The translations under genes were made by a program, and so were the position numbers. Positions 3,919 to 39,094 of a DNA stretch of 44,830 nucleotides are shown one piece after another. Origin of the DNA: an uncultured bacterium (GTDB taxonomy: Bacteria; Patescibacteriota; Minisyncoccia; Phycocordibacterales; UBA6065); assembly GCA_903842365.1 (NCBI GenBank), contig CAIMLU010000004.1, positions 1 through 44,830 of the forward strand. The letters run 5' to 3'. The notes under the pieces are model-generated. The model made no database searches. It was not told the origin of the DNA and saw only the letters and a list, made by a program, of their open reading frames with translations. Each line of letters begins with the position of its first letter. Positions within the stretch are counted from its first letter, which is position 1.

Positions 3919-4281
3919 ATGATAGATATTACGAAATACGAAAAAGCTCTCCGTGCCGAACTCGAAACACTTGAAACTGAACTCAAGTCAGTGGGACACA
4001 TAAATACAGATAACCCAGGTGATTGGGAATCAGACGCAAAAGACGTTGATATTAATACATCGGATGAAGCTGACATTGCCGATAACATTAATGCATATGA
4101 ATCAAACACTGCACTCTTAAAACAATTTGAGGTACAGTACAACGACGTCAAGTCCGCACTTGAACGTATTACAAAAGGAACATACGGTTTTTGTGAAGTG
4201 TGTAAAAATCCGATTGAAGCAAAGAGGTTAAGTGCAAATGCAGCAGCACGCACCTGCCTCGAACATATGGATCAGAAATAA
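3919..4281 (+). CDS. TraR/DksA family zinc-finger transcription regulator
   Basis: coiled coil with DEADIA tip motif; ALERITKGTYGFCEVC...I...RL...ARTCLEH. Confidence 0.92.
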   Translation: MIDITKYEKALRAELETLETELKSVGHINTDNPGDWESDAKDVDINTSDEADIADNINAYESNTALLKQFEVQYNDVKSALERITKGTYGFCEVCKNPIEAKRLSANAAARTCLEHMDQK

Positions 4282-4283
4282 AT

Positions 4284-15908: not shown

Positions 15909-15914
15909 AAACCA

Positions 15915-18656: not shown

Positions 18657-18679
18657 ACCTGAAACTAAATAAAACAAAC

Positions 18680-19243
18680 ATGGAACCTGATCAGGAATTA
18701 GTAGCAAAAAAGTATGAAACACTACCCCAAGAGCTCAAAGAGCTCTTGGATTCTCCTGATGTTGGCGTTCAATTGCTTGAGATAGGTGCTCAAAACGGCC
18801 TCCATTACGATAAATTAGGGCTCTTGAGTAATGAAGTAATTAATGTGGTTCTTGGTGCAAAGGGACGTGATGATTTTATGTCAAACATAGAATCACTCCT
18901 CTCTATTGATCCACAAACCGCACAAAACATTACAAACGATGTAAACGAGAAAATACTCAAGCCAGTACAACACCTCTTGTTTGGGGAACACGAGGATCAT
19001 AAAGATATCAAAAAAGAAGATTTGCTTGCCGAAATTGAAAACCCAACCCCACACCAAACAAACAAAGTTGTATCGGTAGCAACACAAGTAAAAGCAGACA
19101 TTCCTCTTCCAGAAACCATTGATCCTGTTCAATCAATAATCGAGAAAAAACTATCAGAAGTCGTCTCCACACCGACCGAACACACGATTATTGAAGAAAA
19201 AAAGAAACCAAAGGTTGATCCATACCGAGAACCCATAGTGTAG
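18680..19243 (+). CDS. hypothetical protein with a C-terminal DPYREP motif
   Basis: 187 aa ending KVDPYREPIV. Confidence 0.8.
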   Translation: MEPDQELVAKKYETLPQELKELLDSPDVGVQLLEIGAQNGLHYDKLGLLSNEVINVVLGAKGRDDFMSNIESLLSIDPQTAQNITNDVNEKILKPVQHLLFGEHEDHKDIKKEDLLAEIENPTPHQTNKVVSVATQVKADIPLPETIDPVQSIIEKKLSEVVSTPTEHTIIEEKKKPKVDPYREPIV

Positions 19244-19250
19244 GATATAC

Positions 19251-19284
19251 GCAAAACAGGCCCACGTGGCCTGTTTTGCATTTT
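19251..19284 (+). terminator. intrinsic terminator
   Basis: GCAAAACAGGCC-CACGT-GGCCTGTTTTGC followed by ATTTT. Confidence 0.75.
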
Positions 19285-19312
19285 ATGCAATAGAGGGCGA
19301 TAATAGGTGTAT

Positions 19313-19765
19313 ATGCAGTTTCAAGTTCCCCAATTCATAGAAGTCGAAGATAAAATCTTTGGACCACTTACTTTGAAACAATTTATTTACCTTACAGGTA
19401 CTTTTGGTCTTGCGTTTGCCCTATATTCCCTGATAAGCAAAGTAAGTACTGTGCTGGGTATAATTGCAGGTATTCCATGCGTTGGTTTTGGTCTTGCCTT
19501 GGCATTCTATAAGTTCAACGAAAAACCCTTCCTCAATATTATTGAATCCGCGGTAAAGTTTTACTTCTCTGAAAAACTCTATATCTGGAAAAAGAAAGAG
19601 GAGACGAAACCACAAGAGACAATTCGAATAGTACAACAGATGGTAAATCCAAATTTTGCAATACCAAAACTTTCCGACAGTAGACTCAAAGACCTCACCT
19701 GGAGTCTCGACATCAAACAATCAACAACCCCACTTATGAATCAAAAGGGGCAGAATAACATATAG
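19313..19765 (+). CDS. PrgI family protein (VirB3-like)
   Basis: MQFQVPQFIEVEDKIFGPLTLKQF followed by two TM helices. Confidence 0.85.
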   Translation: MQFQVPQFIEVEDKIFGPLTLKQFIYLTGTFGLAFALYSLISKVSTVLGIIAGIPCVGFGLALAFYKFNEKPFLNIIESAVKFYFSEKLYIWKKKEETKPQETIRIVQQMVNPNFAIPKLSDSRLKDLTWSLDIKQSTTPLMNQKGQNNI

Positions 19766-19770
19766 CATCC

Positions 19771-20421
19771 ATGCCAACACCACCATCAAAAACAACCCAA
19801 GACTTCGTACCCATCAAAGAAATACGCCAAGGTGTGGCCGTTTTAAAAGATGGATCACTTCGTGGCATTGTCATGTGTTCTTCAATCAACTTCGCTCTCA
19901 AGTCATTTGAGGAACAACAATCAATACTCAACCAATTTCAAAGTTTCCTAAATGGACTCGATTTTTCAATCCAAATTTTTATTCAGTCACGAAAACTCGA
20001 CATACGACCATACATCGCCCTCCTCGAAGGTCGTCTCAAAGAGCAGGTGAGTGAGCTTCTTAAAATCCAAACGCGAGAATATATAAAATTTATCAAAGAT
20101 TTTTCCGAGAAGCAGAACATTATGACAAAAACGTTCTTTGTTGTTGTGCCTTATTCACCAACAATAGTGAGCGGCTCATCAAACCCACTCTCAAGTTTTT
20201 TGGGTGGAAACAACACTTCAACGGCAACCAATGCCACAGACAAAAAAATTGAAATCTTTGAGGAACATCGAAGTCAGCTTGAGCAACGTATGGGAATGAT
20301 TGAACAGGGATTGGCGGGATGTGGAGTGCGCACCGCAGAGTTAGGGACTGAAGAAATTGTCGAACTATTTTATAAGATATTCAACCCTGGGGATACGGAA
20401 AAACCTATTCCTTTAAACTAA
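19771..20421 (+). CDS. TraC/VirB4 N-terminal-like protein of the T4SS locus
   Basis: TQDFVPIKEIRQG...SINFALKS.EEQ...QFQSFLNGLDFSIQIFIQSRKLDI; lies between PrgI and the VirB4 ATPase. Confidence 0.7.
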   Translation: MPTPPSKTTQDFVPIKEIRQGVAVLKDGSLRGIVMCSSINFALKSFEEQQSILNQFQSFLNGLDFSIQIFIQSRKLDIRPYIALLEGRLKEQVSELLKIQTREYIKFIKDFSEKQNIMTKTFFVVVPYSPTIVSGSSNPLSSFLGGNNTSTATNATDKKIEIFEEHRSQLEQRMGMIEQGLAGCGVRTAELGTEEIVELFYKIFNPGDTEKPIPLN

Positions 20422-20428
20422 AAACCAC

Positions 20429-22246
20429 ATGGGAATATTTGATTCATTGTTTGGTAAAAAGAATGGCGTACAAAACGTATCCATTGCACCAATTCTTCCT
20501 CAGGAAATATATGAAGCAGGCATCCTTGAACTCAAAGATGTTATTGCACCATCCGCACTCAAAGTCTCACCGCGTGAGCTCAACCTCGGCGACAAGATTT
20601 GTCGTAGTTTTTTCGTTATATCATACCCACGATTTCTCACCGAGAGCTGGTTTGCACCAATCATAAACATTGATAAGGTTTTTAACATATCGATTTACAT
20701 ACACCCAATCGACACAGCAACCGTACTTCGCCAATTTCAAAAAAAAGTTGCAGAGGTTCAAAGCCAGATAGTCGAGCGTGAGAGGAAGGGTCTTGTACGT
20801 GACCCAATGCTCGACACCGCATATCAGGACCTTGAAGGACTTCGTGATCAACTCCAACAAGCACAGGAGAAACTCTTTGAAGTGGGTCTCTATATCACTA
20901 TTTACGCAGAAAAAGAAACAGAGCTCGACAAGATTGAGTCTGAAATCAAATCAATCCTCGAGTCAAAAATGGTATATATTAAACCAGCTCTTTTCCAACA
21001 AGAACAAGGTTTTAAATCAAATATTCCAACAGCATCAGATGAACTCTTGGTCCATTCCAAACTCAATTCAGCGCCACTTTCATCGCTCTTCCCATTTGTC
21101 TCATTTGACCTCACTTCAGACAAGGGGATCCTCTACGGTGTAAATAGACATAATGCATCGCTTGTACTCTTTGATAGGTTTTCACTTGAAAACTATAATT
21201 CGATTACATTTGCAAAATCAGGTTCTGGAAAATCTTACTGTACCAAACTCGAGATCCTTCGAACACTCATGTTTGATACTGAAATTATTATCATTGACCC
21301 TGAAAGGGAATATGAATTCCTTGCGGAATCAGTTGGTGGCAAATACTTCAACATCTCACTCAACTCTGAACACCATATTAATCCATTTGATCTTCCACCT
21401 ATCCAAGAGGATGAATCACCTGCGGATGTGCTTCGTAGCAACATCATTAACCTTGTGGGAATGTTCCGAATAATGATGGGAGGACTCACCTCAGAAGAAG
21501 ACGCGATTGTCGATCGCGCGATCACAGAAACATATGCGCTTAAAGACATTACTCCTGATTCAGATTTTTCAGGTATAGACGCACCACTCCTCTCTGATTT
21601 CGAACTTGTACTTGCGGGAATGGAGGGAGGTGAATCGCTTGCTCAAAAACTTACAAAGTTTACAAAGGGAACATGGGCTGGTTTTATCAACAGACCAACA
21701 AACGTTGATATTAACAGCAAACTTGTGGTCTTCTCACTCCGCGACATGGAAGAAGAAATTAAGCCCGTTGCGATGTATATCGTGACTCACCACATCTGGA
21801 CCGTAGTAAGGAAGAATAAACGAAAGCGCCTCCTTGTTATCGATGAAGCATGGCTCATGATGAAGTCTGATGACACAGCGTCATTCCTCCTCGGGCTCGT
21901 AAAACGTGGTCGTAAATATGGTTTAGGAATAGCAACTATCACCCAAGACGTTGACGACTTCCTAAAATCACAATACGGGCTACCGATTATTACGAACTCA
22001 TCGATGCAAATACTCCTCAAGCAGTCGCCAACATCCATCGATAAACTCCAGCAAATATTTCACCTAACCGACGAAGAGAAATACCTTCTCTTGGAATCAC
22101 AGATAGGTGAGGGAATCTTCTTTGTTGGACTCAAACACGTGGCAATTAAAATTATTGCGTCGTACACCGAAGATCAAATCATCACATCGGACCCATTCCA
22201 AATTCTCGCCATAAAAGAGGCACAGAGAGCGAAAATAGGGCAGTAA
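20429..22246 (+). CDS. VirB4-like conjugal-transfer ATPase
   Basis: Walker A AKSGSGKS, IIIDPEREY, INPFDL, Walker B LLVIDEAW, KRGRKY, TITQDV. Confidence 0.9.
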   Translation: MGIFDSLFGKKNGVQNVSIAPILPQEIYEAGILELKDVIAPSALKVSPRELNLGDKICRSFFVISYPRFLTESWFAPIINIDKVFNISIYIHPIDTATVLRQFQKKVAEVQSQIVERERKGLVRDPMLDTAYQDLEGLRDQLQQAQEKLFEVGLYITIYAEKETELDKIESEIKSILESKMVYIKPALFQQEQGFKSNIPTASDELLVHSKLNSAPLSSLFPFVSFDLTSDKGILYGVNRHNASLVLFDRFSLENYNSITFAKSGSGKSYCTKLEILRTLMFDTEIIIIDPEREYEFLAESVGGKYFNISLNSEHHINPFDLPPIQEDESPADVLRSNIINLVGMFRIMMGGLTSEEDAIVDRAITETYALKDITPDSDFSGIDAPLLSDFELVLAGMEGGESLAQKLTKFTKGTWAGFINRPTNVDINSKLVVFSLRDMEEEIKPVAMYIVTHHIWTVVRKNKRKRLLVIDEAWLMMKSDDTASFLLGLVKRGRKYGLGIATITQDVDDFLKSQYGLPIITNSSMQILLKQSPTSIDKLQQIFHLTDEEKYLLLESQIGEGIFFVGLKHVAIKIIASYTEDQIITSDPFQILAIKEAQRAKIGQ

Positions 22247-22290
22247 ATAACAAAAGAATCCCCAAAATCGGGGATTCTTTTGTTATTTAC
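22243..22290 (+). terminator. terminator (perfect 21-bp inverted repeat)
   Basis: GTAAATAACAAAAGAATCCCC-AAAATC-GGGGATTCTTTTGTTATTTAC. Confidence 0.85.
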
Positions 22291-22322
22291 ACAACCAACC
22301 ACATGGTATACTTGTACGTATC

Positions 22323-23318
22323 ATGAATAGATTTTTCGCTGTTGTTGCTATTTTTTTGGTCAGCATTATTGCAACACCTTTTGTTGTACAAGCCCAAGCA
22401 ATAGGTTTCGATAACGAAGTCACAATCCTCACCATCCCCGAGTACCCAAAACCATTTGAGACAATGACGCTCAAGGCACGAAGTTTTTCAACCGATCTTG
22501 ATATTGCTCAATTTAATTGGATAGTGAACGGAAAAACCTATAAACAGGGTACTGGAGTCAAAGACATTAGCGTAACTATGGGTAAACCAGGAACCCTTAC
22601 TGTCGTAAGCGTGGTGATAAAAACAAAAAACGGACAGACAACAACTCAAACTTTTTCATTTCGACCAGCTGACGTAACACTCCTTTGGGAAGCAGACACA
22701 TACAAACCACCTTTTTACAGAGGACACACCACCGCCGCCTTTGGGAGCACATTCCGTATTACAGCTATCCCAGAATTTTTTGATAAAAAAGGTGTCCGGA
22801 TGAATCCAAAAGACCTTGTCTATACATGGAAAAAGAATTACGAGATTGTTGGTGAAGCATCAGGGTATGGAAAGGATAGTTTTATCACAACGAAAACTGG
22901 ATACCTCGACGAGGACGAAAACATATCCGTGGAAGTTTCTTCTCCACGTGAATCGGTTATAGGTAGTACTCACGTTACCATATCACCTACAACCCCAAAA
23001 GTTCTTTTCTACGAAAATAACCCTGCCCTTGGTGTACTTTTTAATAAGGAATTAGGGGGTAGTGTCAACACAGATGCGAGCAGTATTGACCTATTCACGG
23101 CACCATTCGGTATGTCACAATCTAATAGGAACAACCCTATAAACATAGATTGGTCATCTGGAAACACATCTCTCACCGACTTTTTAAGTAAACGATTTAT
23201 CACCATAGACAACAGACTCAACTTAGTACCACTCTCAGTTCAATTCCAAAGCACTAAAAAATTACTCCAAAGTGCCACTGGACAAATTGTTGTTTCATTC
23301 ACAAAATCAAATGAGTAA
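22323..23318 (+). CDS. secreted beta-rich (Ig/PKD-like repeat) protein
   Basis: signal peptide ending AQA; repeated W-containing strands (FNWIVNG, YTWKKN, IDWSSG); TGgTATACT promoter at 22304. Confidence 0.75.
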   Translation: MNRFFAVVAIFLVSIIATPFVVQAQAIGFDNEVTILTIPEYPKPFETMTLKARSFSTDLDIAQFNWIVNGKTYKQGTGVKDISVTMGKPGTLTVVSVVIKTKNGQTTTQTFSFRPADVTLLWEADTYKPPFYRGHTTAAFGSTFRITAIPEFFDKKGVRMNPKDLVYTWKKNYEIVGEASGYGKDSFITTKTGYLDEDENISVEVSSPRESVIGSTHVTISPTTPKVLFYENNPALGVLFNKELGGSVNTDASSIDLFTAPFGMSQSNRNNPINIDWSSGNTSLTDFLSKRFITIDNRLNLVPLSVQFQSTKKLLQSATGQIVVSFTKSNE

Positions 23319-24792
23319 CATAAAAAAAATACTTTTCATCGTCCTTTTATTTGTGTTAATTGGATCAACACCGGTCTACGCAGAAACAACAAGGAATTCA
23401 ATGCGGATGGTTTTTGATGCGGTTTTTGCTACTGGGCCAATTAAATATGAACCAATCACCAATATTCCCGGTGTTACCGATGTGCACCAAAACGGACAAC
23501 CTGCCAACCAAAATCCTGCTGAAATTTTCACTAGTTTATATAAATTTGCAATCGGAATAGCCACTATACTTGCTGTTATTATGATTATGTGGGGAGGTTT
23601 TGAATACATGACAACAGAAGCCTTTACCGGTAAAAACAGTGCAAAAGATCGTATAACATACTCCTTTGTTGGTCTCATCCTTTTGTTAGGATCATACATA
23701 ATACTCAACACCATCAATAGAAACCTACTCACATTTAAAATTACCTTTCCAACGGCAGGAGAAACTGGGATGAACACTGCTGTTACAGCATCACAAGACG
23801 CTCTCAATAAATTTGAAGAAGATAGGGAGACTGCATTGAACACACTTGCAAAGGTAAATGGAGCAAAACGCCTCCTTGAAGAAACAGAAAAAGATTTAAG
23901 TGACGTCAATGCCCAAATGGCACCGCTTGAGGAACGAATAAAAATGGGTAAAGAACTCTCCAAAACCGAAACAGAACTACTAGAAAACCTCACAACACGA
24001 AAAGAAGAGCTTTTAAAACAACAGACAGAGGATCAATCTTTGTATGCCCAAAATACAGAGGGATTAAAAAAACAACTAGACAATCAGTTTACTACAGCTC
24101 TAGATAGAGGATTAACTGATTCAGCTAAAAACATCATGGCAATTCAAAAAAACCAAACAGTGGTGCTTGAAGAATACATAACTCGCGTAAAACCAGCACT
24201 CCAAAGTCAAAAAACTCAACTTGAGGCAAAAATAGCTCAAGTGGGAGAAAGTAATCCAGAGGCACAAGGGTTAAAAAACCAACTAGCCGTCGTCAACGAA
24301 AAACTTGCAGCTGTTACAAAAAATGAGGATGTGATCAGCTCACAAAAACTTGATGCCTACAAACAAGAAGCGGAGGTTGCAATACTAGAGACAAAAAACG
24401 TACAGTGGTGGCAATCAATCAAAAACACTGTCTATGACGCGGAACAAAGTAAGGAAAGGATAAACGAAAATACAACCTATAAAGCCCTCGAAACACCATA
24501 TCCAGCAGACTTCAAAAATACAGTAAATGAAAAACTAGAGGACGCCCTTACTGATTTTAATGAGAAAAGAATAAACGATAAAATAAAAAATGCAGAAGGG
24601 AAGTATAAAGTTTCTTTAAATTCACCTGAGTTTAAAGAAGTGCGTGGCAAAATAATTGAAGGATCAAGGGCCGCTTTTACGAAAGTGCAGTTGACTATCG
24701 AAAACCGAAAAGATGTTAAAATACAAGAAGATAACAGTATTTTACAAGCAACTATGGTTGAAAACCCTGATGGCACTGTAGACATAAAATAG
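23311..24792 (+). CDS. VirB2/TrbC-like pilin domain fused to a long coiled coil
   Basis: signal ending VYA; LYKFAIGIATILAVIMIMWGGFEYMT...AKDRI...GLILLLGSYIILNTIN two-helix pilin pattern; start set to ATG 23311. Confidence 0.75.
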   Translation: MSNIKKILFIVLLFVLIGSTPVYAETTRNSMRMVFDAVFATGPIKYEPITNIPGVTDVHQNGQPANQNPAEIFTSLYKFAIGIATILAVIMIMWGGFEYMTTEAFTGKNSAKDRITYSFVGLILLLGSYIILNTINRNLLTFKITFPTAGETGMNTAVTASQDALNKFEEDRETALNTLAKVNGAKRLLEETEKDLSDVNAQMAPLEERIKMGKELSKTETELLENLTTRKEELLKQQTEDQSLYAQNTEGLKKQLDNQFTTALDRGLTDSAKNIMAIQKNQTVVLEEYITRVKPALQSQKTQLEAKIAQVGESNPEAQGLKNQLAVVNEKLAAVTKNEDVISSQKLDAYKQEAEVAILETKNVQWWQSIKNTVYDAEQSKERINENTTYKALETPYPADFKNTVNEKLEDALTDFNEKRINDKIKNAEGKYKVSLNSPEFKEVRGKIIEGSRAAFTKVQLTIENRKDVKIQEDNSILQATMVENPDGTVDIK

Positions 24793-24799
24793 AAAAGGT

Positions 24800-26020
24800 A
24801 TGAAAAAAATTCTCATTGGTATAAGCATTTTGTTGTGCGTCGGTATGGTGATATGGTTTTTCTTCTTTCAAGGTAATGTTGAACAAAACAATACCCCCAC
24901 AAAGAGTGATACCTCTAGTAGCATATTCCCTTTTGGGGAAGGAAACATTGTAAAAACAAAGCCTCAAAAACCAAAAACATCTGATATTAGTGAAGTAAAT
25001 AAGACACCTGATCAGGAATACCTTCCAATACTCAGAAAAATTTGGGATAAACCAGTCGCTGGTGGTGTTATTTTTGACGACGGAAAGTCTACTAAAATCA
25101 GATTCGTTGAACGCTCAACGGGCCATATTTATGAGACGGAGAAGTACTTACCAAAAACAACACGTCTCTCGAATACAACCATACCTCGTGTTGGGGAGGC
25201 ATTGTGGCAAAACGATGGATCAAAAGTTCTCTTGCGTTATTTACGTGACGACAACGAAACGATTCGAACCTTTTCTGGAATTGTGCCAACCACGACAAAT
25301 AGCACGATAGATGGTGTTTTTCTAGCGGACAATATTCAATCACCAGCACTTTTCAAAGACAAGATTGCCTACATAACAACCTCGGTTGATGGGGCAACTG
25401 TTATAACGGCGAACATGGATGGGACTAAAAAAACAGCCATCTTTACCTCACCCTCAAACGAATGGGAGATTTCATGGACTAATCCAAACTCATTAGCCTT
25501 ATGGAGTTCACCAAGCATTGTTTCACCTGGGGCTTTATATTCTCTTAACACAACGAAAGGAACGTATAACCGTGTGGCCTCTGAGGTATATGGAGGTGAG
25601 GGTAAGCTAAACAAAAATGGTAGTTTAATGCTCATTACAGGATCAAAAAACAGTGGATTAGGTACAGCGGTATTCGATGTAAAGAGTGGTGATAAAAAAG
25701 TTTTGGATATAGGAACCGTGGTTGATAAGTGTACATGGAGCCCAATCGCCACATCAACCGTATACTGTGCAGTTCCAGATACATTAACACAAGGCAATTA
25801 CCCAGACGATTGGTATCAAGGACTTATATCAACAGGGGACAGTGTGTGGCGAATTGATACAATAACAGGCTCAAAGGAAAGAATCTTTAGCCCAACAAAA
25901 ACTGAACTTGAAGATCCAATTGATGTAACACATCTTACTATAAACAACAAAGGTGATACGTTGTTGTTTATGAACAAAAAGGACCAGACGCTGTGGTCCT
26001 ACGACATATACGCATTTTAA
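24800..26020 (+). CDS. membrane-anchored beta-propeller-like hypothetical protein
   Basis: N-terminal TM, linker, beta-strand repeats; KCTWS...VYCAVP...PDDWYQG. Confidence 0.7.
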   Translation: MKKILIGISILLCVGMVIWFFFFQGNVEQNNTPTKSDTSSSIFPFGEGNIVKTKPQKPKTSDISEVNKTPDQEYLPILRKIWDKPVAGGVIFDDGKSTKIRFVERSTGHIYETEKYLPKTTRLSNTTIPRVGEALWQNDGSKVLLRYLRDDNETIRTFSGIVPTTTNSTIDGVFLADNIQSPALFKDKIAYITTSVDGATVITANMDGTKKTAIFTSPSNEWEISWTNPNSLALWSSPSIVSPGALYSLNTTKGTYNRVASEVYGGEGKLNKNGSLMLITGSKNSGLGTAVFDVKSGDKKVLDIGTVVDKCTWSPIATSTVYCAVPDTLTQGNYPDDWYQGLISTGDSVWRIDTITGSKERIFSPTKTELEDPIDVTHLTINNKGDTLLFMNKKDQTLWSYDIYAF

Positions 26021-26818: not shown

Positions 26819-27172
26819 TTATATGATATTTGTTTTTTTAGACAGTGAACCGCTCTTTTCCAGAAGACCCGTAACATCTGGTGTTATGGAACAAATAGAA
26901 ACACCTTTGTTTATCTTAAAAACAAAGCAGTATAGGCCTGGATTTATAGAGTATGTCTTTTGAATTTGCTCAACAACAGCATACCCAACCCTCCTTAAAC
27001 GATGCCTTAATACAGATGTTGGTGCTACTTTTTTTGAAGTAGAAAAAGAGAACCTTGGAACAAGGCCCTCTTTTTTGTATGCAAGCATCGTATAAGTACC
27101 CGATACTTTTTTACCGCTCGAAAAAACCATATTAACGAGCGCAGTATTCATGCGCGCAGATGTGCGCAACAT
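26819..27172 (-). CDS. rnpA: ribonuclease P protein component (divergent)
   Basis: RFSFSTSKKV...VLRHRLRR (RNR motif variant); lies between rpmH and yidC. Confidence 0.8.
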   Translation of the reverse strand: MLRTSARMNTALVNMVFSSGKKVSGTYTMLAYKKEGLVPRFSFSTSKKVAPTSVLRHRLRRVGYAVVEQIQKTYSINPGLYCFVFKINKGVSICSITPDVTGLLEKSGSLSKKTNII

Positions 27173-27186
27173 AGATAGGTGGTAAA

Positions 27187-27321
27187 TTATGCAGAAAGCT
27201 TCTTGCGGCCTTTGTGCATCCTACGCTTTATGGTGTTTTTACCATTTGTCGATGACATCCTCTTTAGGAAGCCGTGAGAGCGTGCGTGTTTACGAACCTT
27301 TGGTTTTGTTTTGATTGCCAT
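27187..27321 (-). CDS. rpmH: 50S ribosomal protein L34
   Basis: 44 aa, HGFLKRMSSTNG...RRMHKGRKKLS; divergent from dnaA. Confidence 0.92.
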   Translation of the reverse strand: MAIKTKPKVRKHARSHGFLKRMSSTNGKNTIKRRMHKGRKKLSA

Positions 27322-27474
27322 ATATAGTGTGAAAATGATTTCAAAGTATCGGTTGTATGTACAGCAAATGTCATAACCGATTGCTTGTAGACATATTATT
27401 AACACACTTAATGATTGTTCACAAGTTTTAAAAAAGGAACAAGACCGTATACTTCAGATAACCAAACAAACTCG

Positions 27475-28812
27475 ATGTCTGACCAAAAAAAACTCTGGGA
27501 TAGCGTCCTCGGAAGCGTAGAGCTTCAGGTGTCGAAAGCAAATTTCAATACATGGTTTAAAGATACCTATATTTTGAAAAACGATGACGGTATTATTTAT
27601 GTAGCAGTCCCAAACGCCTTTGTACGTGATTGGCTTTTTAACAAGTACCACAAATGTATCCTGAAGAGCCTGCGTGATTATGGTGGTGATATACGATCAG
27701 TTGAATACGTTATAACAAGGAGCGAACAGAAGAAAGAAACAGACCTACCTAAAAAACAAGAAGTGGGGGAGCTACCACTTCAGGAACCTATTATAAACAA
27801 GGACGACAACCTAAACCCACGATACGTGTTTGAATCTTTCGTTGTGGGACCATTTAACGAACTCGCTCACGCCGCCTCTCAAGCAGTTATAAAGAAACCA
27901 GGTATTGCATACAACCCACTCTTTATTTATGGGGATACAGGACGCGGAAAAACACACCTTATCCAGGCCGTTGGAAACCACCTTAAAAATCACTCAAACC
28001 AGAGGGTTATTTATATAACATCTGAAAAATTTGTCGTTGAGTATGTAAACGCCCTCCAATCAAACAAAATCAACCAATTTAAGGAAAAATACCGAAAATA
28101 CGATGTGTTTATTATGGATGATATTCAATTCCTATCAGGAAAAGAGAAGAGTCAAGAAGAGTTATTCCACCTATTCAACACTCTCTATGACAACAACAAA
28201 CAAATACTCTTTTCTTCAGATAGGCACCCAAACTATATAGACAACCTCGAAGCACGCCTTAAATCACGTTTTAGCGCAGGAATGACGGTTGATATATCAG
28301 CACCAGATCACGAATCCCGCATCGCAATTCTTAAAACGAAAATCAAGACAGTGGGAATCAACCTAACTGACGATGTTATTGATTTTATAGCAAGTAACGT
28401 TGATTCAAACATCAGGGAACTTGAAGGAACCTTCAACTCAATTGTTGTACAATCGCAATTAAAAGGAAGAACCCTTAATTTAATTGAAGTAAAAAACCTC
28501 ATAAAAGACTCATCTAAACCTAAAAAAGCACTCTCGGTAAAGGATGTGGTTAAAACAGTGAGTGGTTATTACAACATAGCAGAGGAGAGTATTTATGAAA
28601 AAACACGTAAAAAGGAGGTTGTTAAGCCGCGCCAAGTTATTATGTTTATTTTGAGGGAAAATTTAAGCATTTCATATCCATCAATAGGAGAAAAGCTGGG
28701 CGGAAGAGATCACACCACGGTCATTCACTCATGTGAAAAGATAAAAGGTGACATCAAGATTGACCAAAAACTTGCACAGGAAATTGAGCACATTAAATCC
28801 TTGTTGTTTTAA
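27475..28812 (+). CDS. dnaA: chromosomal replication initiator DnaA
   Basis: LNPRYVFESFVVG, YNPLFIYGDTGRGKTHL, DDIQFL, NIRELEG, GGRDHTTVIH. Confidence 0.98.
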   Translation: MSDQKKLWDSVLGSVELQVSKANFNTWFKDTYILKNDDGIIYVAVPNAFVRDWLFNKYHKCILKSLRDYGGDIRSVEYVITRSEQKKETDLPKKQEVGELPLQEPIINKDDNLNPRYVFESFVVGPFNELAHAASQAVIKKPGIAYNPLFIYGDTGRGKTHLIQAVGNHLKNHSNQRVIYITSEKFVVEYVNALQSNKINQFKEKYRKYDVFIMDDIQFLSGKEKSQEELFHLFNTLYDNNKQILFSSDRHPNYIDNLEARLKSRFSAGMTVDISAPDHESRIAILKTKIKTVGINLTDDVIDFIASNVDSNIRELEGTFNSIVVQSQLKGRTLNLIEVKNLIKDSSKPKKALSVKDVVKTVSGYYNIAEESIYEKTRKKEVVKPRQVIMFILRENLSISYPSIGEKLGGRDHTTVIHSCEKIKGDIKIDQKLAQEIEHIKSLLF

Positions 28813-29030: not shown

Positions 29031-30140
29031 ATGAAAAATATGAAATTAGAATGTGTACGAGAAAGACTGAGTGCTCAGTTGTCTAAAATAGATAAAATTC
29101 CATCAAAGAATGCAAACCTACCGATTCTTTCTTGTATTCTTATTTCTGCTCGAAAAGGTGAACTTGTTTTAAGGGCAACAAACCTTGATGTTGGTGTTGA
29201 AGTTTCATTGCCAGCCCATGTTGATATTGAGGGTTCTGTTGCTGTTCCAGCCCAGATGTTTTCTAGTCTCATTTCTCAACTTAAAGGTGATAAGTCTGTT
29301 GTGTTGGAATCGGTTGAGGGAAACGTGAAGGTCTCTTGTGGGGGGGTTGTGTCTGTCGTGAAAGGTCTGTCTCCTGATGATTTTCCTGTGATCCCAGAGG
29401 TTGATTCTGTTGCGAGTACAACTATAAACCCAGAATCTTTTACTAAGGGTATTCTTTCTGTTTCTTTTGCTGCTTCTCAATCGCAGGTTAAACCGGAGCT
29501 GGCTTCTGTGTATGTTTATTCGTTGGATGAATCCCTTGTTTTTGTTTCAACGGATTCTTTTAGACTTGCGGAGAAGAAGGTAAAAATTAAAAACGCCGCT
29601 GATTTTAACCCTGTTATTATTCCGTCTAAAAACGTTGCTGATATTGCCCGCGTGCTTGCTGGTGTCGATGAGGATGTTGTTGTTTGTTTTGATAAATCAC
29701 AGATTCAATTCAAATCAAATTCTTTTATTTTTGTAAGCAGGGTTATTGAGGGAACGTTTCCAAATTATGCTCAGATTATTCCAAAAGAATACAGTACTGA
29801 GGCTATTGTATTAAAATCCGAATTTATTGAGGCTCTTAAAACATCGTCGCTTTTTTCTGATAAGTTTAATCAGATAAAAATGATAATAAGCCCATCGGAG
29901 AAAAAATTTGAAACCCAAGTTAAAAATGGTGATATTGGTGAAATCATATCACGTATACACACCTCGTTGTCAGGTGAGGATGTTGAACTTTCTTTTAACC
30001 AACGTTATATAACCGACTCAATGCAAGCTATTTCATCGGATAGCATTGTATTATCTTTTGTCGGTGCAACTAAGCCGTTGGTTATGAGGGGGGTTGGTGA
30101 TAAAACCTTCCTTTATTTGGTAATGCCTATGAATAAATAG
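29031..30140 (+). CDS. dnaN: DNA polymerase III beta clamp
   Basis: LPILSC, ATNLD, DDFPVIP, STDSFRLAE, SRVIEGTFPNY, YLVMPM. Confidence 0.97.
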   Translation: MKNMKLECVRERLSAQLSKIDKIPSKNANLPILSCILISARKGELVLRATNLDVGVEVSLPAHVDIEGSVAVPAQMFSSLISQLKGDKSVVLESVEGNVKVSCGGVVSVVKGLSPDDFPVIPEVDSVASTTINPESFTKGILSVSFAASQSQVKPELASVYVYSLDESLVFVSTDSFRLAEKKVKIKNAADFNPVIIPSKNVADIARVLAGVDEDVVVCFDKSQIQFKSNSFIFVSRVIEGTFPNYAQIIPKEYSTEAIVLKSEFIEALKTSSLFSDKFNQIKMIISPSEKKFETQVKNGDIGEIISRIHTSLSGEDVELSFNQRYITDSMQAISSDSIVLSFVGATKPLVMRGVGDKTFLYLVMPMNK

Positions 30141-34678: not shown

Positions 34679-35161
34679 TTATAAAAACAAAAAACGTTCT
34701 GTGGCAAATAGTGTGAGCCCTATTGCGATTGCGTCATACTCATCATCGAGCGCGTCTTTCTCAAACCTTGTAAGTTTTTTTACCATAAAAACAACTTGTT
34801 TTTTATCGCTTTTTCCATATCCTGTTACAGCGATTTTTATATGTGCTGGGCTGTATTCAAACACCTGTAGTCCTGATTGAACACACGTTGCTAATAGTGC
34901 ACCCCGTGCCTCAGCTACAAGGAGCGCTGTTTTTTTGTTTGCGGAAAAGAAGAGTGTTTCAATTGCGAGTGCCGTTGGTTTGTATTCCTCAATAATTCTT
35001 ACCACCTCTTGTGCAATAAGGTTAAGCCTCTTTGGGTGTGATTCTTTGATTGATGTATGAAAACAGTCCGAATACACGATGGTTTCTTTTGTTGATTGTG
35101 TTTTTTCTAAAATAGCGATGCCTAAACGTTCGTATCCAGGGTCAATTGCGAGTATCCTCAT
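34679..35161 (-). CDS. ruvC: Holliday junction resolvase RuvC
   Basis: MRILAIDPG, AIETLFF, EARG, VTGYGKSDK, DDEYDAIAI; TATAGT 6 nt before ATG. Confidence 0.96.
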   Translation of the reverse strand: MRILAIDPGYERLGIAILEKTQSTKETIVYSDCFHTSIKESHPKRLNLIAQEVVRIIEEYKPTALAIETLFFSANKKTALLVAEARGALLATCVQSGLQVFEYSPAHIKIAVTGYGKSDKKQVVFMVKKLTRFEKDALDDEYDAIAIGLTLFATERFLFL

Positions 35162-35202
35162 ATGGTGACTATACACTGGGTGCTATTACAAATACAAGCA
35201 AT

Positions 35203-35230
35203 ATAAAACCGCTTACATAAGCGGTTTTAT
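35203..35230 (-). terminator. terminator after yebC
   Basis: ATAAAACCGCTT-ACAT-AAGCGGTTTTAT. Confidence 0.7.
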
Positions 35231-35233
35231 TGA

Positions 35234-35761
35234 TTAGTCAACATTAGTGAACACTTCTTGCACCTCATCGTTATCTTCAAGTGCATCAACAAGTTTTTCA
35301 AGAAGGATTAGATCTTCATCAGAGAGGGGAACGGTTGTTGATGCTGTCCATGAGGAACCTTCTCGTTTGAATGCCCACGACGCACTCCCTATTGCGGCGA
35401 GAGCAAACCCGTTCTCGGTAAGTATATGTTTTATTTCTTGAGCCGCTTTGTTTTTATTCGACGTAAGCGCTTCAATAATAATTGCTGATCCACCCGGACC
35501 GTATGTTTCATAGGTTATAGATTCAAGTCCAACTGATCCTTCTGTTGCTTTTTTTATCGCACGATCAATTGCATCGTTTGGCATGTTAACCTCTCTTGCC
35601 CTTTCGATTGCCGTTCGGAGTCCTGGGGCGTCTTTATTTCCTTTTGCTTTACGCGCTTCATCGGTTATAAGTCTTGAAAATTTTGAGAAGTGTTTCGATT
35701 TTTGAGCGTCAGTCTTGGCTTTCTTATGCTTTATCTGTGACCATTTATTATGTCCTGACAT
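35234..35761 (-). CDS. yebC: YebC/PmpR family protein (short form)
   Basis: MSGHNKWSQIKHKK, YETYGPGG, LEDNDEVQEVFTN. Confidence 0.95.
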   Translation of the reverse strand: MSGHNKWSQIKHKKAKTDAQKSKHFSKFSRLITDEARKAKGNKDAPGLRTAIERAREVNMPNDAIDRAIKKATEGSVGLESITYETYGPGGSAIIIEALTSNKNKAAQEIKHILTENGFALAAIGSASWAFKREGSSWTASTTVPLSDEDLILLEKLVDALEDNDEVQEVFTNVD

Positions 35762-35798
35762 TTTTTTAAATGTTACTTTTCTGTGTAATAGAAGTTAC

Positions 35799-36827
35799 CT
35801 ATATGGTATCGCGCATGTGATCGTATCCTTTTGCTGTTACGGTACGTCCGCGAGGTGTTCTTTCTATAAGGCCCAGCTTGAGAAGGTATGGCTCATATAC
35901 TTCCTCAACTGTTTCTTGTTCTTCGGAAAGTGAGGCGGCAACTGTATTGAGTCCAACAGGACCACCTCCAAAAGTATTAATGATGGCATGGAGTAGTTCG
36001 CGATCGGACTTATTGAGTCCCAAAGAGTCAATACCGAGCATTGTGAGGGTTTCTTCGACGATACTACGTGATATGGTTGTTTTTCGTATTTGTGCCAAAT
36101 CACGAACGCGTTTAAGAAGAAAGTTCGCGGTTCGCGGTGTAAACCTACTTCGTTCGGCAATTACAAGTGCTGATGGTGTATCCATTTCTACACCCAAGAG
36201 CTTTGCAGATCGTTTAATAATCTCCTCTATTTCGTTTTTTGAATAAAATTCAAGTTTGTGTACGCCTCCAGAAAATCGTGATCGAAGTGGGGAAGAGAGG
36301 AGTGCGACTTTTGTTGTAGCACCAACAAGTGTAAAAGGTGGAAGGTCGAGCTGGATGGTTCGCGCCGAGGGGCCTTTGCCGATAATGATATCAAGTACCC
36401 CTGATTCCATTGCTGGATAAAGGACTTCCTCGATTGATTTATTAAGTCTATGTATTTCATCTATAAAAAGAACGTCTCCTGAGGATAGATTAGTGAGTAT
36501 TGATGCTAAATCACCAACTTTTTCAATTGCAGGGCCTGAGGTTTGTTTCATTTGAGCACCAAGTTCTTTTGCAACAAGGTGTGCGAGTGTTGTTTTTCCA
36601 AGACCTGGTGGACCGTAAAAAAGGATGTGTTCAGGTGGGTGATTACGTTCTTTTGCAGCAGATAAAAGGATTTTAAGATTCTCTTTTATTGATACCTGTC
36701 CAACGTATTCATCCCACGAGGAAGGTCGTAGTGTTTGGTCAAGAAAAAGAGAGTCGCCTTTAGAAAAGGCTTGATTTTCCTTGCTATTATTGGCATCTAG
36801 AGGTTGAGGGCGAGAAGGGCTTGACAT
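35799..36827 (-). CDS. ruvB: Holliday junction branch-migration helicase RuvB
   Basis: LRP..WDEYVGQ, GPPGLGKTTLA, FIDEIHRL, LYPAME, GGPVG, ERTPRGR. Confidence 0.97.
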   Translation of the reverse strand: MSSPSRPQPLDANNSKENQAFSKGDSLFLDQTLRPSSWDEYVGQVSIKENLKILLSAAKERNHPPEHILFYGPPGLGKTTLAHLVAKELGAQMKQTSGPAIEKVGDLASILTNLSSGDVLFIDEIHRLNKSIEEVLYPAMESGVLDIIIGKGPSARTIQLDLPPFTLVGATTKVALLSSPLRSRFSGGVHKLEFYSKNEIEEIIKRSAKLLGVEMDTPSALVIAERSRFTPRTANFLLKRVRDLAQIRKTTISRSIVEETLTMLGIDSLGLNKSDRELLHAIINTFGGGPVGLNTVAASLSEEQETVEEVYEPYLLKLGLIERTPRGRTVTAKGYDHMRDTI

Positions 36828-36849
36828 ATAAAATACTTTATGCTAGACT
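36821..36849 (+). promoter_or_regulatory. near-consensus sigma70 promoter for the intergenic RNA
   Basis: TTGACA-17 bp-TAGACT with extended TG. Confidence 0.75.
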
Positions 36850-36855
36850 ACAAGT

Positions 36856-37092
36856 ACAAGCTCGATTGGTAAGAGCTTGTCTCGTTTCAGAGCTATGAAT
36901 CTCTAAGGAATTAAGTCTTCACGGCTTACTAGTGTTTCCTTTGAGGACGTTCTGGTTAATACTTCGGTATTTTACTGGGCCTATCCTTGAAACAACATTT
37001 AACTTACGCGGGCGTCGCTTAAGTATTCCTTGGAGATTTATGGCCCGGAATCTCTTTCAAACCTCGCCCTCATGTGTGCGGGGTTTGTTGTT
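36856..37092 (+). ncRNA. structured ncRNA, 6S-RNA-like rod (core about 36885-37051)
   Basis: 20-bp G.U-containing closing helix 36892-36911/37025-37044, apical cUUCGg loop at 36963, own promoter, downstream GC hairpin with U-rich tail. Confidence 0.55.
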
Positions 37093-37330
37093 TGAACTGT
37101 ACTCTCTGTTTCAAAAGAGTGCAATGTGTACAACGTAAAAGGACACAAAAGTCTGTTAAAATCAAAAAACACCAGGAATTTCCTCATGTTTTTTGATTTG
37201 TCTTTTAATCTGACGGGTGACCTAATTCTTCTGAGTGAAGCTGTTGGTGATTGAAAGCGTTCCTGTTGTGCGAGGTTTCTTTGGGCGAATCTTATATATG
37301 TTGTCTGGGTGATGTTAAACCAAGTTTGGT

Positions 37331-39013
37331 CTATTCAGTTTCAAGGTCGACAACTCGACCAAGTTCATCAAGCGATGTTAAACCCTTTAAAACTTTAAGA
37401 ATTCCATCTTCACGAAGAGTTGGAATACCTTGGTGTTTTGTTGCCGCCCGTACTTCTCGTTCCGATGGATTTTTAATAAGGACATCTTCAAGTGTTTGGT
37501 CTGCAAGTATCGCCTCATAAATACCAATACGGCCCTTGTATCCAAGACCGTTACATATAAGGCAGCCTTTTGCACGGAATATTTTTTTTGAGTTTACACC
37601 TTCAATAAGTGTTTTATCAAAAATGGTATTAAGTGAGTCTTCAATAATTTTTCTCTCCTCATCAGTTGGAGTGTCTTCTGTTTTACAGCTTGAACAAAGT
37701 GTTCGAACAAGACGTTGTGCGAGTGCGATGTTTAATGCTGAGATGAGTGTTTTAGGACTGATACCAAGGTCGATTAATCGTGGAAATGTACCTGCGGCTG
37801 AATTTGTGTGGAGTGTTGAAAACACAAGGTGACCCGTGAGAGCTGCGTTCACTGCCGTTTCTGCTGTCTCGGAATCGCGGATTTCACCAACCATAATAAC
37901 ATCAGGGTCTTGACGGAGTGCTGCGCGGAGCCCAAGTGCGAACGTGTATCCTTTGTCTGCATTTGTTTGGGTTTGAGTAATTCCTTTTAAGTGATACTCA
38001 ATTGGGTCTTCGATAGTGAGAACTTTTACACCTGGATCATACACTTTACTCAAGAAAGCATAGAGTGTTGTTGTTTTTCCAGATCCAGTTGGCCCAGTGG
38101 TGAGGAGTAATCCTTTTGGTCGCCCTATTTCATGGGTAAGTATTCCTAGGAGTTTTTCGGGAATACCCATCGCTTCTAAAGGAACCTGGATAGACTTTGG
38201 ATTGAGGATTCGCATAACAATTGATTCGTTGTATGCACCAGGGAGGAGGGAGGTTCGGATCTCGATTTCTTCACTATCTAATTTAATACTAAAACGGCCG
38301 TCTTGAGCCTCGGATTTAACATTTAACTTTAGACCAGAAAGGAGTTTTATGCGCGAGAGCACGAGTGGATATGTTTCTACATCAAGACCTATAATATCTG
38401 TTAAAACACCATCAAGACGATATCGTAATCGTGTTGATGTTTCTTCAGGTTCGATGTGTATGTCTGATGCCTTGGTTGCAAGTGCTCCACCAAGAATGAT
38501 CTCGAGTATTTTTGAAATACGAAGACCTTTCTTCATTTTTAAAATATCACTCACGATTCGCTTAACATCTTCGGTCGAGTGAATTTCACTTAAGAATGTC
38601 TTGATTTCCTCACTTGATATTTCAAGGGCCCCAGCCTTACTTTGTTCTGAATGAGAAAGGTCTGCATAGCGGACCCATGCTTTCTCAAGGCTATTCTGAG
38701 AGACAACAACCTGGGTTACTTCGTAATTTTGGTTTTCAAGTGATGTAAGAATCTCACCCAGTTTTGGGTGGTTAGGGGAGAGTACTCCTACTTTAATTTT
38801 TTTTCCAATAAGTGAAAAACCAACGACTCTTGTTTCGCGGGCAATGTGTTCAGGAATAACACGCAAAGCATCCATGTTTATAGGAATGGGGCCAAGGTCT
38901 GCGTATTCAAGACCATTTCTTCCTGCAACAATTTGGGCAAGATCCTCCTCCTCTTTTTTCTTGAATTCCTCAAGTTGTTTTATCTGCTTTTCCTCATCAA
39001 ATATAACTGTCAT
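37331..39013 (-). CDS. GspE/PilB type IV pilus assembly ATPase
   Basis: ASDIHIEP, RYRLDG, QDGRF, GPTGSGKTTTLY, TIEDPIEY, LRQDPDVIMVGEIRD, TGHLVFSTLHTN, CxxC...CxxC; start ATG 39013 with TACAAT 7 nt upstream. Confidence 0.95.
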   Translation of the reverse strand: MTVIFDEEKQIKQLEEFKKKEEEDLAQIVAGRNGLEYADLGPIPINMDALRVIPEHIARETRVVGFSLIGKKIKVGVLSPNHPKLGEILTSLENQNYEVTQVVVSQNSLEKAWVRYADLSHSEQSKAGALEISSEEIKTFLSEIHSTEDVKRIVSDILKMKKGLRISKILEIILGGALATKASDIHIEPEETSTRLRYRLDGVLTDIIGLDVETYPLVLSRIKLLSGLKLNVKSEAQDGRFSIKLDSEEIEIRTSLLPGAYNESIVMRILNPKSIQVPLEAMGIPEKLLGILTHEIGRPKGLLLTTGPTGSGKTTTLYAFLSKVYDPGVKVLTIEDPIEYHLKGITQTQTNADKGYTFALGLRAALRQDPDVIMVGEIRDSETAETAVNAALTGHLVFSTLHTNSAAGTFPRLIDLGISPKTLISALNIALAQRLVRTLCSSCKTEDTPTDEERKIIEDSLNTIFDKTLIEGVNSKKIFRAKGCLICNGLGYKGRIGIYEAILADQTLEDVLIKNPSEREVRAATKHQGIPTLREDGILKVLKGLTSLDELGRVVDLETE

Positions 39014-39094
39014 GGCGTCTATTGTATCGTGTTTGGGTTGGTAAACGATGCTTGACAAATTCTATTTTTGTAGTACTATTAAATACAGAAATTT

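Follow-up and report, generated by a model that had tools for sequence, protein, structure and literature searches.

A stretch of 44,830 nucleotides (hereafter the window), covering positions 1 to 44,830 of contig CAIMLU010000004.1 in the GenBank assembly GCA_903842365.1, comes from an uncultured bacterium placed in the GTDB lineage Patescibacteriota; Minisyncoccia; Phycocordibacterales; UBA6065. In the window, ruvB and the 3' end of a pilB-like gene are separated by a 503-nt spacer, and this spacer carries the gene of a structured non-coding RNA (ncRNA). The transcription unit, located at positions 36821–37095 of the forward (+) strand, starts with a promoter close to the consensus, continues with a leader hairpin and a folded core of about 169 nt, and closes with a terminator; no gene follows on the same strand, the pilB-like gene being convergent. 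The RNA belongs to a family conserved in the class Minisyncoccia (Paceibacteria, or 'Parcubacteria') of the Candidate Phyla Radiation (CPR). Judged by sequence and covariance-model comparisons, this family is without a detectable relative; the newness lies in the family, and no new mechanism is claimed.

An earlier note, made from the letters of this DNA, had proposed at this place a promoter-driven, rod-shaped ncRNA divergent from ruvB, which would be either a 6S RNA of divergent type, produced as a precursor, or the representative of a new ncRNA class. The elements that it listed are all present at the places given, namely TTGACA and TAGACT separated by 17 nt, with a TG extension, over the ruvB start; a 5' hairpin; a 20-bp closing helix containing G.U pairs; an apical cUUCGg; and a terminator-like hairpin (Table 1). 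In the promoter scan, three promoter-like sites were recorded in the 1-kb region, compared with 1.2 ± 1.2 in shuffled sequences. The CAT within TTGACAT is the complement of the ruvB start codon ATG (36825–36827), the −35 element overlapping the start codon of the opposite strand.

The closing helix, P1, comprises in the window 20 continuous base pairs (36892–36911 with 37025–37044), three of them G.U, and is extended outwards by irregular pairs to 36884/37052. The long arm, P3, consists of a base helix, small internal loops, an AGGA/UCCU helix, a 1 × 2 loop (C versus YA), an 8-bp helix rich in G.U pairs, and, at the apex, a variable hairpin, the loop of which is c-UUCG-g in the window (UUCG at 36963–36966). 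The earlier note envisaged a nearly symmetric rod with internal loops, but the predicted core is branched: two side hairpins, P2 and P4, flank the long arm at a tight junction. The + strand of the region 36850–37100 folds with −86.8 kcal/mol (z = −5.45, with none of 200 shuffled sequences equally stable), and the opposite strand of the RNA region has z = −3.8. A 68-aa open reading frame (ORF) at 36932–37138 overlaps the RNA region; it is without counterpart in 19 relatives, in line with the statement of the note that no credible ORF is present.

Relatives were collected by a RuvB-based scan of species-representative genomes, from which 80 loci (L001–L080) were kept, every one of them reached via ruvB; 25 of these (L001–L019, L021, L022, L027, L039, L049, and L063) were taken as CPR on the basis of their database labels and rank. 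The upstream regions of the CPR loci were inspected by eye, and all 80 loci were included in the model search. Already with blastn and nhmmer, an RNA in the spacer upstream of ruvB was detected in several loci. Fourteen clear cases were aligned with MAFFT to give the seed alignment A1, with a mean column identity of 59%; the RNAalifold consensus of A1 showed compensatory changes in 23 of 39 pairs, and a covariance model, R1, was built on this alignment. The space searched with R1 at E ≤ 10 amounted to 1.35 Mb and comprised the window, L001–L080, and the E. coli ssrS locus (L081).

The search returned 38 matches, of which 20 were in the sense orientation upstream of ruvB, 15 were antisense, and 3 were weak matches elsewhere. 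The sense matches lie directly upstream of ruvB, on the strand opposite to it, in the window and in 19 of the 25 CPR loci, with one RNA copy per locus. The window scored 124.5 bits and the 13 seed loci 101–144 bits, while the model also reached six loci outside the seed (L014, 62.3 bits; L003, 54.8; L017, 46.4; L011, 44.3; L039, 31.0; and L021, 24.7). The antisense matches coincide in place with the sense ones and score 30–51 bits versus 100–144 bits for the latter, and the three remaining matches are weak A/T-rich hairpins elsewhere in L044, L072, and L049. No R1 match was found at the equivalent place in the 55 non-CPR ruvB loci. When the six CPR loci that had no default match were searched with filters off, tentative candidates appeared at the expected position in L027 (28.5 bits) and L049 (21.0 bits), and nothing was found near ruvB in L018, L019, L022, and L063. 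Since unrelated hairpins in L049 score 19–25 bits, the candidate in that locus is at noise level.

According to their database labels, the carriers belong to Minisyncoccia and to the candidate groups Nomura-, Zambryski-, Kaiser-, Ryan-, Sungii-, and Moranii-bacteria. The syntenic position in the core genome is kept across species with 58–74% RuvB identity. The model of CPR ruvB-upstream regions that the earlier note had recommended building extends to loci on which it was not trained, and the claim of a promoter-driven structured ncRNA conserved in relatives is borne out by the 19 further CPR loci, by covariation, and by the assignment to the + strand.

Pairing statistics were calculated on A3, a model-guided alignment of 15 sequences. 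In A3, 94.3% of 579 cells are paired, compared with 79.0 ± 1.0% in shuffles, and 24 of the 39 modelled pairs have changes on both sides; none of 500 shuffles reached any of the five measures, and slid-register controls gave 39–51% pairing. Compensatory changes occur in 17 of the 25 pairs of P1, where 6 pairs never vary, and in 3 of the 5 modelled pairs of P4. Twelve further pairs, read from the alignment, were added to give an extended structure of 51 pairs, 34 of which are compensatory, with 87.4% pairing versus 72.8% in shuffles. The pair 71/109 in P3 is formed in all 15 sequences (G-C in 10, A-U in 3, G-U in 1, and U-A in 1), so that the conserved P3 'loop' shrinks to one C opposite Y-A, beside the invariant AGGA/UCCU helix. 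With the register kept fixed, the central part of P3 pairs in only about half of the cases, so that small, shifting internal loops break up the arm.

The modelled pairs hold 57 G.U cells versus 10 A.C cells, and the pairing of 94.3% on the + reading falls to 86.2% on the complement. From this imbalance and from the orientation of the promoter and the terminator, the + strand is the one that encodes the functional RNA. The same figures bear on the possibility that no RNA is involved and that the locus is a DNA inverted repeat (an operator, a recombination site, or a miniature inverted-repeat transposable element) or a small protein gene. The P1 strands do form an inverted repeat of 20–28 bp in the DNA, and the 68-aa ORF does overlap the region in the window, but the excess of G.U over A.C cells is a mark of selection on one RNA strand, each locus has a single copy, and a search of the window for further copies of the P1 and P3 motifs gave no more than expected by chance (10 matches versus 10.3, and 8 versus 12.4). 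Nor was a shared ORF found in the 20 sequences; the longest ORFs differ in strand, frame, length, and peptide, so that no protein is encoded. A DNA-level or small-protein explanation is largely refuted, and we assign it a negligible probability.

Single-sequence minimum-energy folds were made for all 20 members (the window and 19 loci); they are predictions, not probing results, and the junction and hairpins derive from this energy folding, supplemented by covariation for P1, P3, and P4, with P2 taken from folding alone. Across the 20 folds the core measures 127–181 nt, P1 19–28 bp, and the P3 arm 57–84 nt. P1 contains 0–6 unpaired nucleotides, mostly in its outer part, and at least 20 continuous base pairs in many members. 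Three branches leave the closing helix in 15 members, two in 4 (L011, L014, L015, and L016), and four in one (L039). A hairpin in the place of P2 is predicted in 16 members and is missing in the four with two branches; these hairpins are stable, have unrelated sequences, and in several cases are capped by UUCG loops. All junction linkers are at most 6 nt long, and the 5' linker is 0–3 nt. The core is predicted to be branched, with a tight three- or four-way junction of P1, an optional P2, P3, and P4.

Conservation is unevenly distributed over this structure. The lower two thirds of P3 are free of insertions and deletions in A3, save for one single-sequence insertion column per strand (column 56 in the window and column 107 in L014), and length and sequence are both free to vary in P2, in the P4 loop, and in the hairpin at the apex of P3. 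The invariant columns of A1 belong to inner P1 (CUC.AA..A / U..UU.GAG) and to AGGAC...AUCCU, and the inner 13–15 bp of the closing helix are conserved in sequence. The conserved nucleotides are thus at the inner P1 duplex, the junction, and the P3 loop, the last about one helical turn off the junction. The 3'-strand motif of P3, ACUGGnYCUAUCCU, has a single occurrence with no mismatches in the window, with looser matches at chance level.

In 15 of the 20 folds a four-way junction is predicted, two of its arms being long and two short, and the gene shows conserved linkage to ruvB, which in the window shares its operon with ruvC; the RNA could therefore be thought of as a mimic of a Holliday junction that titrates or guides RuvA, RuvB, or RuvC. 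However, Ruv proteins act on DNA junctions, and these data contain no link of Ruv proteins to RNA. In addition, L011, L014, L015, and L016 form only a three-way junction, and no ruvA was detected among the 36 window ORFs scanned. Such a mimic is therefore very unlikely in our estimation.

A strict scan found the promoter TTGACA-16/17-TGnTAnnnT in 18 of the 20 members, and in L004 and L015, the two remaining members, inspection by eye showed TTGACA with a weaker TG-extended −10. Between the −35 element and the core lie 37 to 162 nt, which corresponds to leaders of roughly 0–126 nt that differ in sequence too. Such a variable leader fits a precursor or trimming, and the part of the earlier proposal according to which the RNA is made as a precursor agrees with it, but the identity as 6S is not supported by the tests described below. 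A U-tract directly follows P1 in 11 of the 20 members, P1 itself thus being the terminator stem, and a separate downstream hairpin with a U-run, as in the window, was seen by eye in at least L003, L004, and L016. Individual loci show further peculiarities: L003 has a second TTGACA promoter nearer the RNA, and the long 5' leaders of L004 and L006 contain their own terminator-like hairpin and U-run upstream of the conserved core, which hints at attenuation or leftover terminators.

The overlap between the −35 element and the ruvB start (TTGACAT is the complement of ATGTCAA) was observed in the window and 12 of the 19 loci, i.e. in 13 of the 20 members, and sets the RuvB N-terminus as Met-Ser-(Ser/Arg/Thr). 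In L010, the ATGTCAAGC relic is kept, but a stop follows after 13 codons. Beyond the RNA, a convergent PilB-like gene is found in 16 of the 19 loci; in L009, L010, and L016 the far neighbour is not pilB, and the RNA is still beside ruvB. The family scan revealed no consistent ruvB-sense promoter in the spacer.

In the window the genes ruvB, yebC, and ruvC follow each other in this order on the − strand (34679–36827), and the RNA gene could be a cis-acting antisense or transcription-interference element controlling them, its fold serving mainly for stability. On this account, the −35 element of the RNA promoter covers the ruvB start, and the transcript is antisense to read-through from pilB to ruvB. 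The overlap in 13 members, the persistence of the RNA by ruvB where pilB is not the far neighbour, and the lack of a consistent ruvB-sense promoter in the spacer, from which it follows that ruvB transcripts probably cross the RNA gene, speak for such a role. However, an antisense RNA would require neither a conserved internal loop nor an arm of constant length nor pairing that tolerates G.U, and 7 of the 20 members keep the RNA without the start-codon overlap. We consider such control in cis rather improbable; roles in cis and in trans are not mutually exclusive.

Identification with 6S RNA, the first option of the earlier note, was examined from several sides. The 6S RNAs are described as rods of about 200 nt that have a large central bubble of relatively little structure and two helical arms whose continuity is broken by small loops and bulges (PMC8876501, PMC1242208). 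The CPR RNA resembles them (SsrS; RF00013) as a stand-alone, strongly promoted molecule of about 130–180 nt with a variable leader, in which the two ends form a long closing helix and the apical arm facing it is interrupted by small internal loops. A functional analogue of 6S would mimic an open promoter and in this way bind the housekeeping RNA polymerase (RNAP) holoenzyme; P3 would correspond to the upstream arm, P1 to the downstream duplex, and the junction to the 'bubble'. The size of the core, the two-arm layout, and the paired ends fit this assumption; the small internal loops of P3 have a parallel in the arms of 6S according to the account in PMC8876501, in which B. subtilis 6S-1 RNA, too, is given a hairpin on the 3' side of its central bubble. 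The strong promoter and variable leader fit a processed, abundant RNA, and our literature search on CPR and 6S yielded no report of a 6S RNA in these bacteria, so that the niche may be open. The 5' closing strand is pyrimidine-rich and the 3' strand purine-rich in the CPR RNA, in the RF00013 consensus, and in E. coli 6S, a likeness that is loose and weak.

Against this, RF00013 (threshold 46.4 bits), which scored the control E. coli 6S at 139.8 bits, gave no match at E ≤ 10 in any of three members (positions 36700–37400 of the window, L012, and L021), a relaxed scan of the kind suggested in the earlier note. In the reciprocal search, R1 did not match the E. coli ssrS locus at E ≤ 10, with at most 4.4 bits anywhere in it. 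The central bubble on which a 6S identity depends is not open in any of the 20 folds; unlike in 6S, the centre is a tight three- or four-way junction with the short linkers given above. P2 is stable, and in the four members lacking it only about 0–3 unpaired nucleotides lie on the would-be template side. Of the two arms, P3 is irregular, and P1 is almost perfect and in many members has at least 20 continuous base pairs, its 0–6 unpaired nucleotides lying mostly in the outer part and its inner 13–15 bp being conserved in sequence. Two strings that the earlier note had named as parts of E. coli 6S, CCUUGAACC and GCGGCGGC, do both occur there, but their look-alikes in the window are not conserved; since they fall in variable positions (the strand after UCCU and the P4 loop), the resemblance is coincidental.

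As a proxy for the refolding upon 6S release, the top of the P1 5' strand, corresponding to the would-be template of the product RNA (pRNA), was masked and the molecule refolded. Masked E. coli 6S lost 2.7 kcal/mol and formed its known 9-bp hairpin, whereas the CPR RNAs lost 17–24 kcal/mol and formed no shared new helix in the 11 of 14 sequences with a correctly placed mask, the rows of L002, L012, and L016, in which the mask was misplaced, being uninformative. By this proxy, the CPR RNA, unlike 6S, has no refolding element that compensates for opening of the closing helix. Altogether, at the level of sequence and model similarity in either direction, the RNA is not a detectable homologue of 6S, and its function as an analogue of 6S appears unlikely, though it keeps some weight. 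The alternative option of the earlier note, a new ncRNA class, fits the evidence better.

A partial parallel is provided by Ms1 RNA of actinobacteria, a 6S-like RNA that binds the RNAP core and is described as structurally related to 6S (PMC9130861). Like the CPR family, Ms1 is lineage-restricted, and the same account has it found through synteny and having a 6S-like shape without 6S sequence homology. In the folds of the CPR RNA the bubble is absent, and no Rfam 6S-like model was matched at E ≤ 10.

Other known families were searched for in a similar way. At gathering thresholds, Rfam 15 detected in the whole window only tRNA-Lys, and ARAGORN likewise reported tRNA-Lys and no transfer-messenger RNA (tmRNA). 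At E ≤ 10, the window, L012, and L021 showed no match to models of 6S, 6S-like RNAs, signal recognition particle (SRP) RNA, RNase P, tmRNA, 5S rRNA, Y RNA, riboswitches, or ribozymes; there were only chance matches to an isrJ terminator fragment, LPR69, microRNA models, bxd_5, and rivX, those to the microRNA models being spurious and falling on the A/T-rich hairpin at 37159–37199. Diverged CPR RNase P RNAs are still detectable with lowered thresholds, and the available part of the study of circularised CPR genomes reporting this describes no RNA like the ruvB-adjacent one (PMC8172020). Sequence inspection had suggested 5S rRNA, SRP domain IV, and conserved regions of RNase P, as well as a k-turn, an 11-nt tetraloop receptor, and a T-loop, all of which were rejected, having no model match. 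A translational switch between Shine–Dalgarno and anti-Shine–Dalgarno sequences was also dismissed, no start codon following AGGA.

A multi-stem junction with conserved internal-loop nucleotides could also belong to a cis-acting riboswitch or leader, a self-cleaving ribozyme, or a mobile-element guide RNA (of the retron, IS110 bridge, or IscB/TnpB omega type); with its closing stem, its hairpins, and one long arm, the RNA bears a superficial likeness to retron ncRNAs. However, because the RNA is followed by a terminator and then, in the window as in 16 of the 19 loci, by a convergent gene, there is nothing downstream to regulate, and no riboswitch or ribozyme model matched the three members tested. 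With regard to guide RNAs, genes for a reverse transcriptase, a recombinase, or TnpB/IscB were found neither adjacent to the RNA nor among the 36 window ORFs scanned, blastn searches of phage and plasmid collections gave no match, and the position is fixed by synteny in species as far apart as indicated above. The chance that the RNA belongs to one of these types is very small.

Two further comparisons concern RNAs that are bound or processed by proteins. Y RNAs and YrlA, which bind Ro, share with the CPR family a terminal helix of conserved sequence made from both ends and a branched module, a combination typical of protein docking. Unlike these RNAs, the CPR RNA has no conserved bulge in P1, no tRNA-like T or D loops, and, in the three members searched, no Rfam match; no rsr gene was found nearby among the window ORFs scanned. 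The RNase III stems of rRNA and of the precursors of B. subtilis small cytoplasmic RNA are long, near-perfect helices that flank a folded RNA and separate it from a discardable leader and trailer, and P1 is similar to them in enclosing the folded core. Unlike in such stems, the inner helix is here the most sequence-conserved part of the molecule, which suggests that it is retained and recognised rather than just cut away.

The explanation that we favour, and to which we would give about an even chance, is that the locus is the gene of a stand-alone, trans-acting structured RNA of an uncatalogued family that may serve as a scaffold or decoy for a protein. Conservation concentrated in the paired inner part of P1 and in a small loop at a fixed distance, with drifting tips, points most likely to recognition by a protein along one face, in trans. 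In the course of events that we propose, the near-consensus sigma-70-type promoter would fire away from ruvB, and the transcript would fold into P1, an optional P2, the length-invariant P3, and P4 at the tight junction, transcription ending at P1 with its U-tract or at a separate terminator. The variable 5' leader would then be trimmed back to P1, a helix that would shield both ends and may itself be a site of RNase III processing. A housekeeping protein would dock on a surface of two parts provided by the conserved, rigidly spaced elements, and the RNA would work as a ribonucleoprotein scaffold or decoy.

A more specific version, in which the RNA is a new housekeeping class specific to Minisyncoccia or CPR, a ribonucleoprotein subunit or decoy with no counterpart among the known universal RNAs (6S, SRP, RNase P, tmRNA, or Y RNA), has in our view slightly less than an even chance. 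In this version, the partner would recognise the conserved perfect duplex and the AGGA-C/YA-UCCU loop one helical turn from the junction. Among the points against a trans-acting scaffold or decoy for a putative partner protein, a perfect helix of at least 20 bp is an expected target of RNase III, which bears on the mature form, and the conserved overlap of the −35 element with the ruvB start (13 of 20 members) could mean a role in cis.

Table 1. Features of the RNA gene and of selected other genes in the window
Feature	Position	Strand	Remarks
PrgI-family protein	19307–19765
TraG/VirB4-like ATPase	20429–22246
Type IV secretion system (T4SS)-pilin-like protein	23272–24792
ruvC	34679–35176	−	Window ORF
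yebC (YebC/TACO1-like), 175 aa	35234–35761	−	Window ORF
ruvB, divergent neighbour	35799–36827	−	ATG inside the −35 element of the RNA promoter
Promoter TTGACA, 17-nt spacer, TG-extended −10 (TGcTAGACT)	36821–36849	+	10 of 12 matches plus TG
5' leader hairpin, ACAAGCUC / GAGCUUGU, 8 bp, 9-nt loop	36856–36880	+	Species-specific, outside the conserved core
P1 closing helix, 5' strand	36884–36911	+	Inner part with the family-wide AAUCUCUAAGsAAU
P2, 5' side hairpin, 6 bp	36912–36928	+	Optional across the family
P3, long irregular arm	36931–36999	+	Folding and alignment
AGGAC motif	36944–36948	+	Invariant in the 14 seed sequences (columns A58 G59 G60 A61 C62)
3'-strand motif ACUGGnYCUAUCCU	36974–36987	+	Kept even in the most divergent members, L021 and L049
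P4, 3' side hairpin, stacked directly on P1, conserved CUU/AAG base	37002–37024	+	20 of 20 folds
P1 closing helix, 3' strand (AUUsCUUrGAGAUU...)	37025–37052	+	Folding and covariation
Intrinsic-terminator-like hairpin and U-rich tail	37056–37095 (hairpin 37056–37085)	+	Folding; partial isrJ match, terminator only
A/T-rich perfect hairpin, 13 bp with further inner pairs, A and T runs on both sides	37159–37199		Between the RNA terminator and the pilB stop
PilB-like type II/IV secretion ATPase, convergent neighbour	37331–39058	−	Domain/ORF annotation

Several other features of the window were recorded. The A/T-rich hairpin beyond the RNA terminator is probably a two-way terminator outside the RNA core. 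The best match of the YebC/TACO1-like protein to a 160-position model of the second and third domains spans only positions 1–57, and this ORF may be shortened. The segment 26080–30140 contains yidC on the − strand, dnaA (27415–28812), and dnaN (29031–30140), and the 540-nt gap at 26878–27414, about 9 kb from the RNA gene, is likely the replication origin. A cluster resembling type IV secretion and conjugation systems occupies positions 13407–26020 and, besides the genes listed in Table 1, includes several large ORFs without Pfam match, such as that at 15915–18656 (913 aa). At 3919–5801, a 120-aa DksA/TraR-type zinc-finger protein is encoded directly upstream of a ComM/Mg-chelatase-like ATPase; proteins of the DksA/TraR type bind RNAP and could bear on the RNAP-related reading of the RNA, and no link was found.

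Much of bacterial diversity belongs to the CPR, whose members have tiny genomes and for the most part have not been cultured. To our knowledge, their ncRNAs beyond rRNA, tRNA, RNase P, SRP RNA, and tmRNA are almost undescribed, and our search of the literature on CPR, Patescibacteria, or Parcubacteria in combination with 6S, RNA motifs, or ncRNA found nothing relevant. The combination of a strong promoter, covariation, and a single genomic position maintained over about 20 species-level lineages suggests that the RNA likely does something central. If it replaces 6S, it would mean that RNAP can be sequestered by way of a junction where 6S uses a bubble; with a different partner, the RNA would point to an undescribed ribonucleoprotein in a reduced genome.

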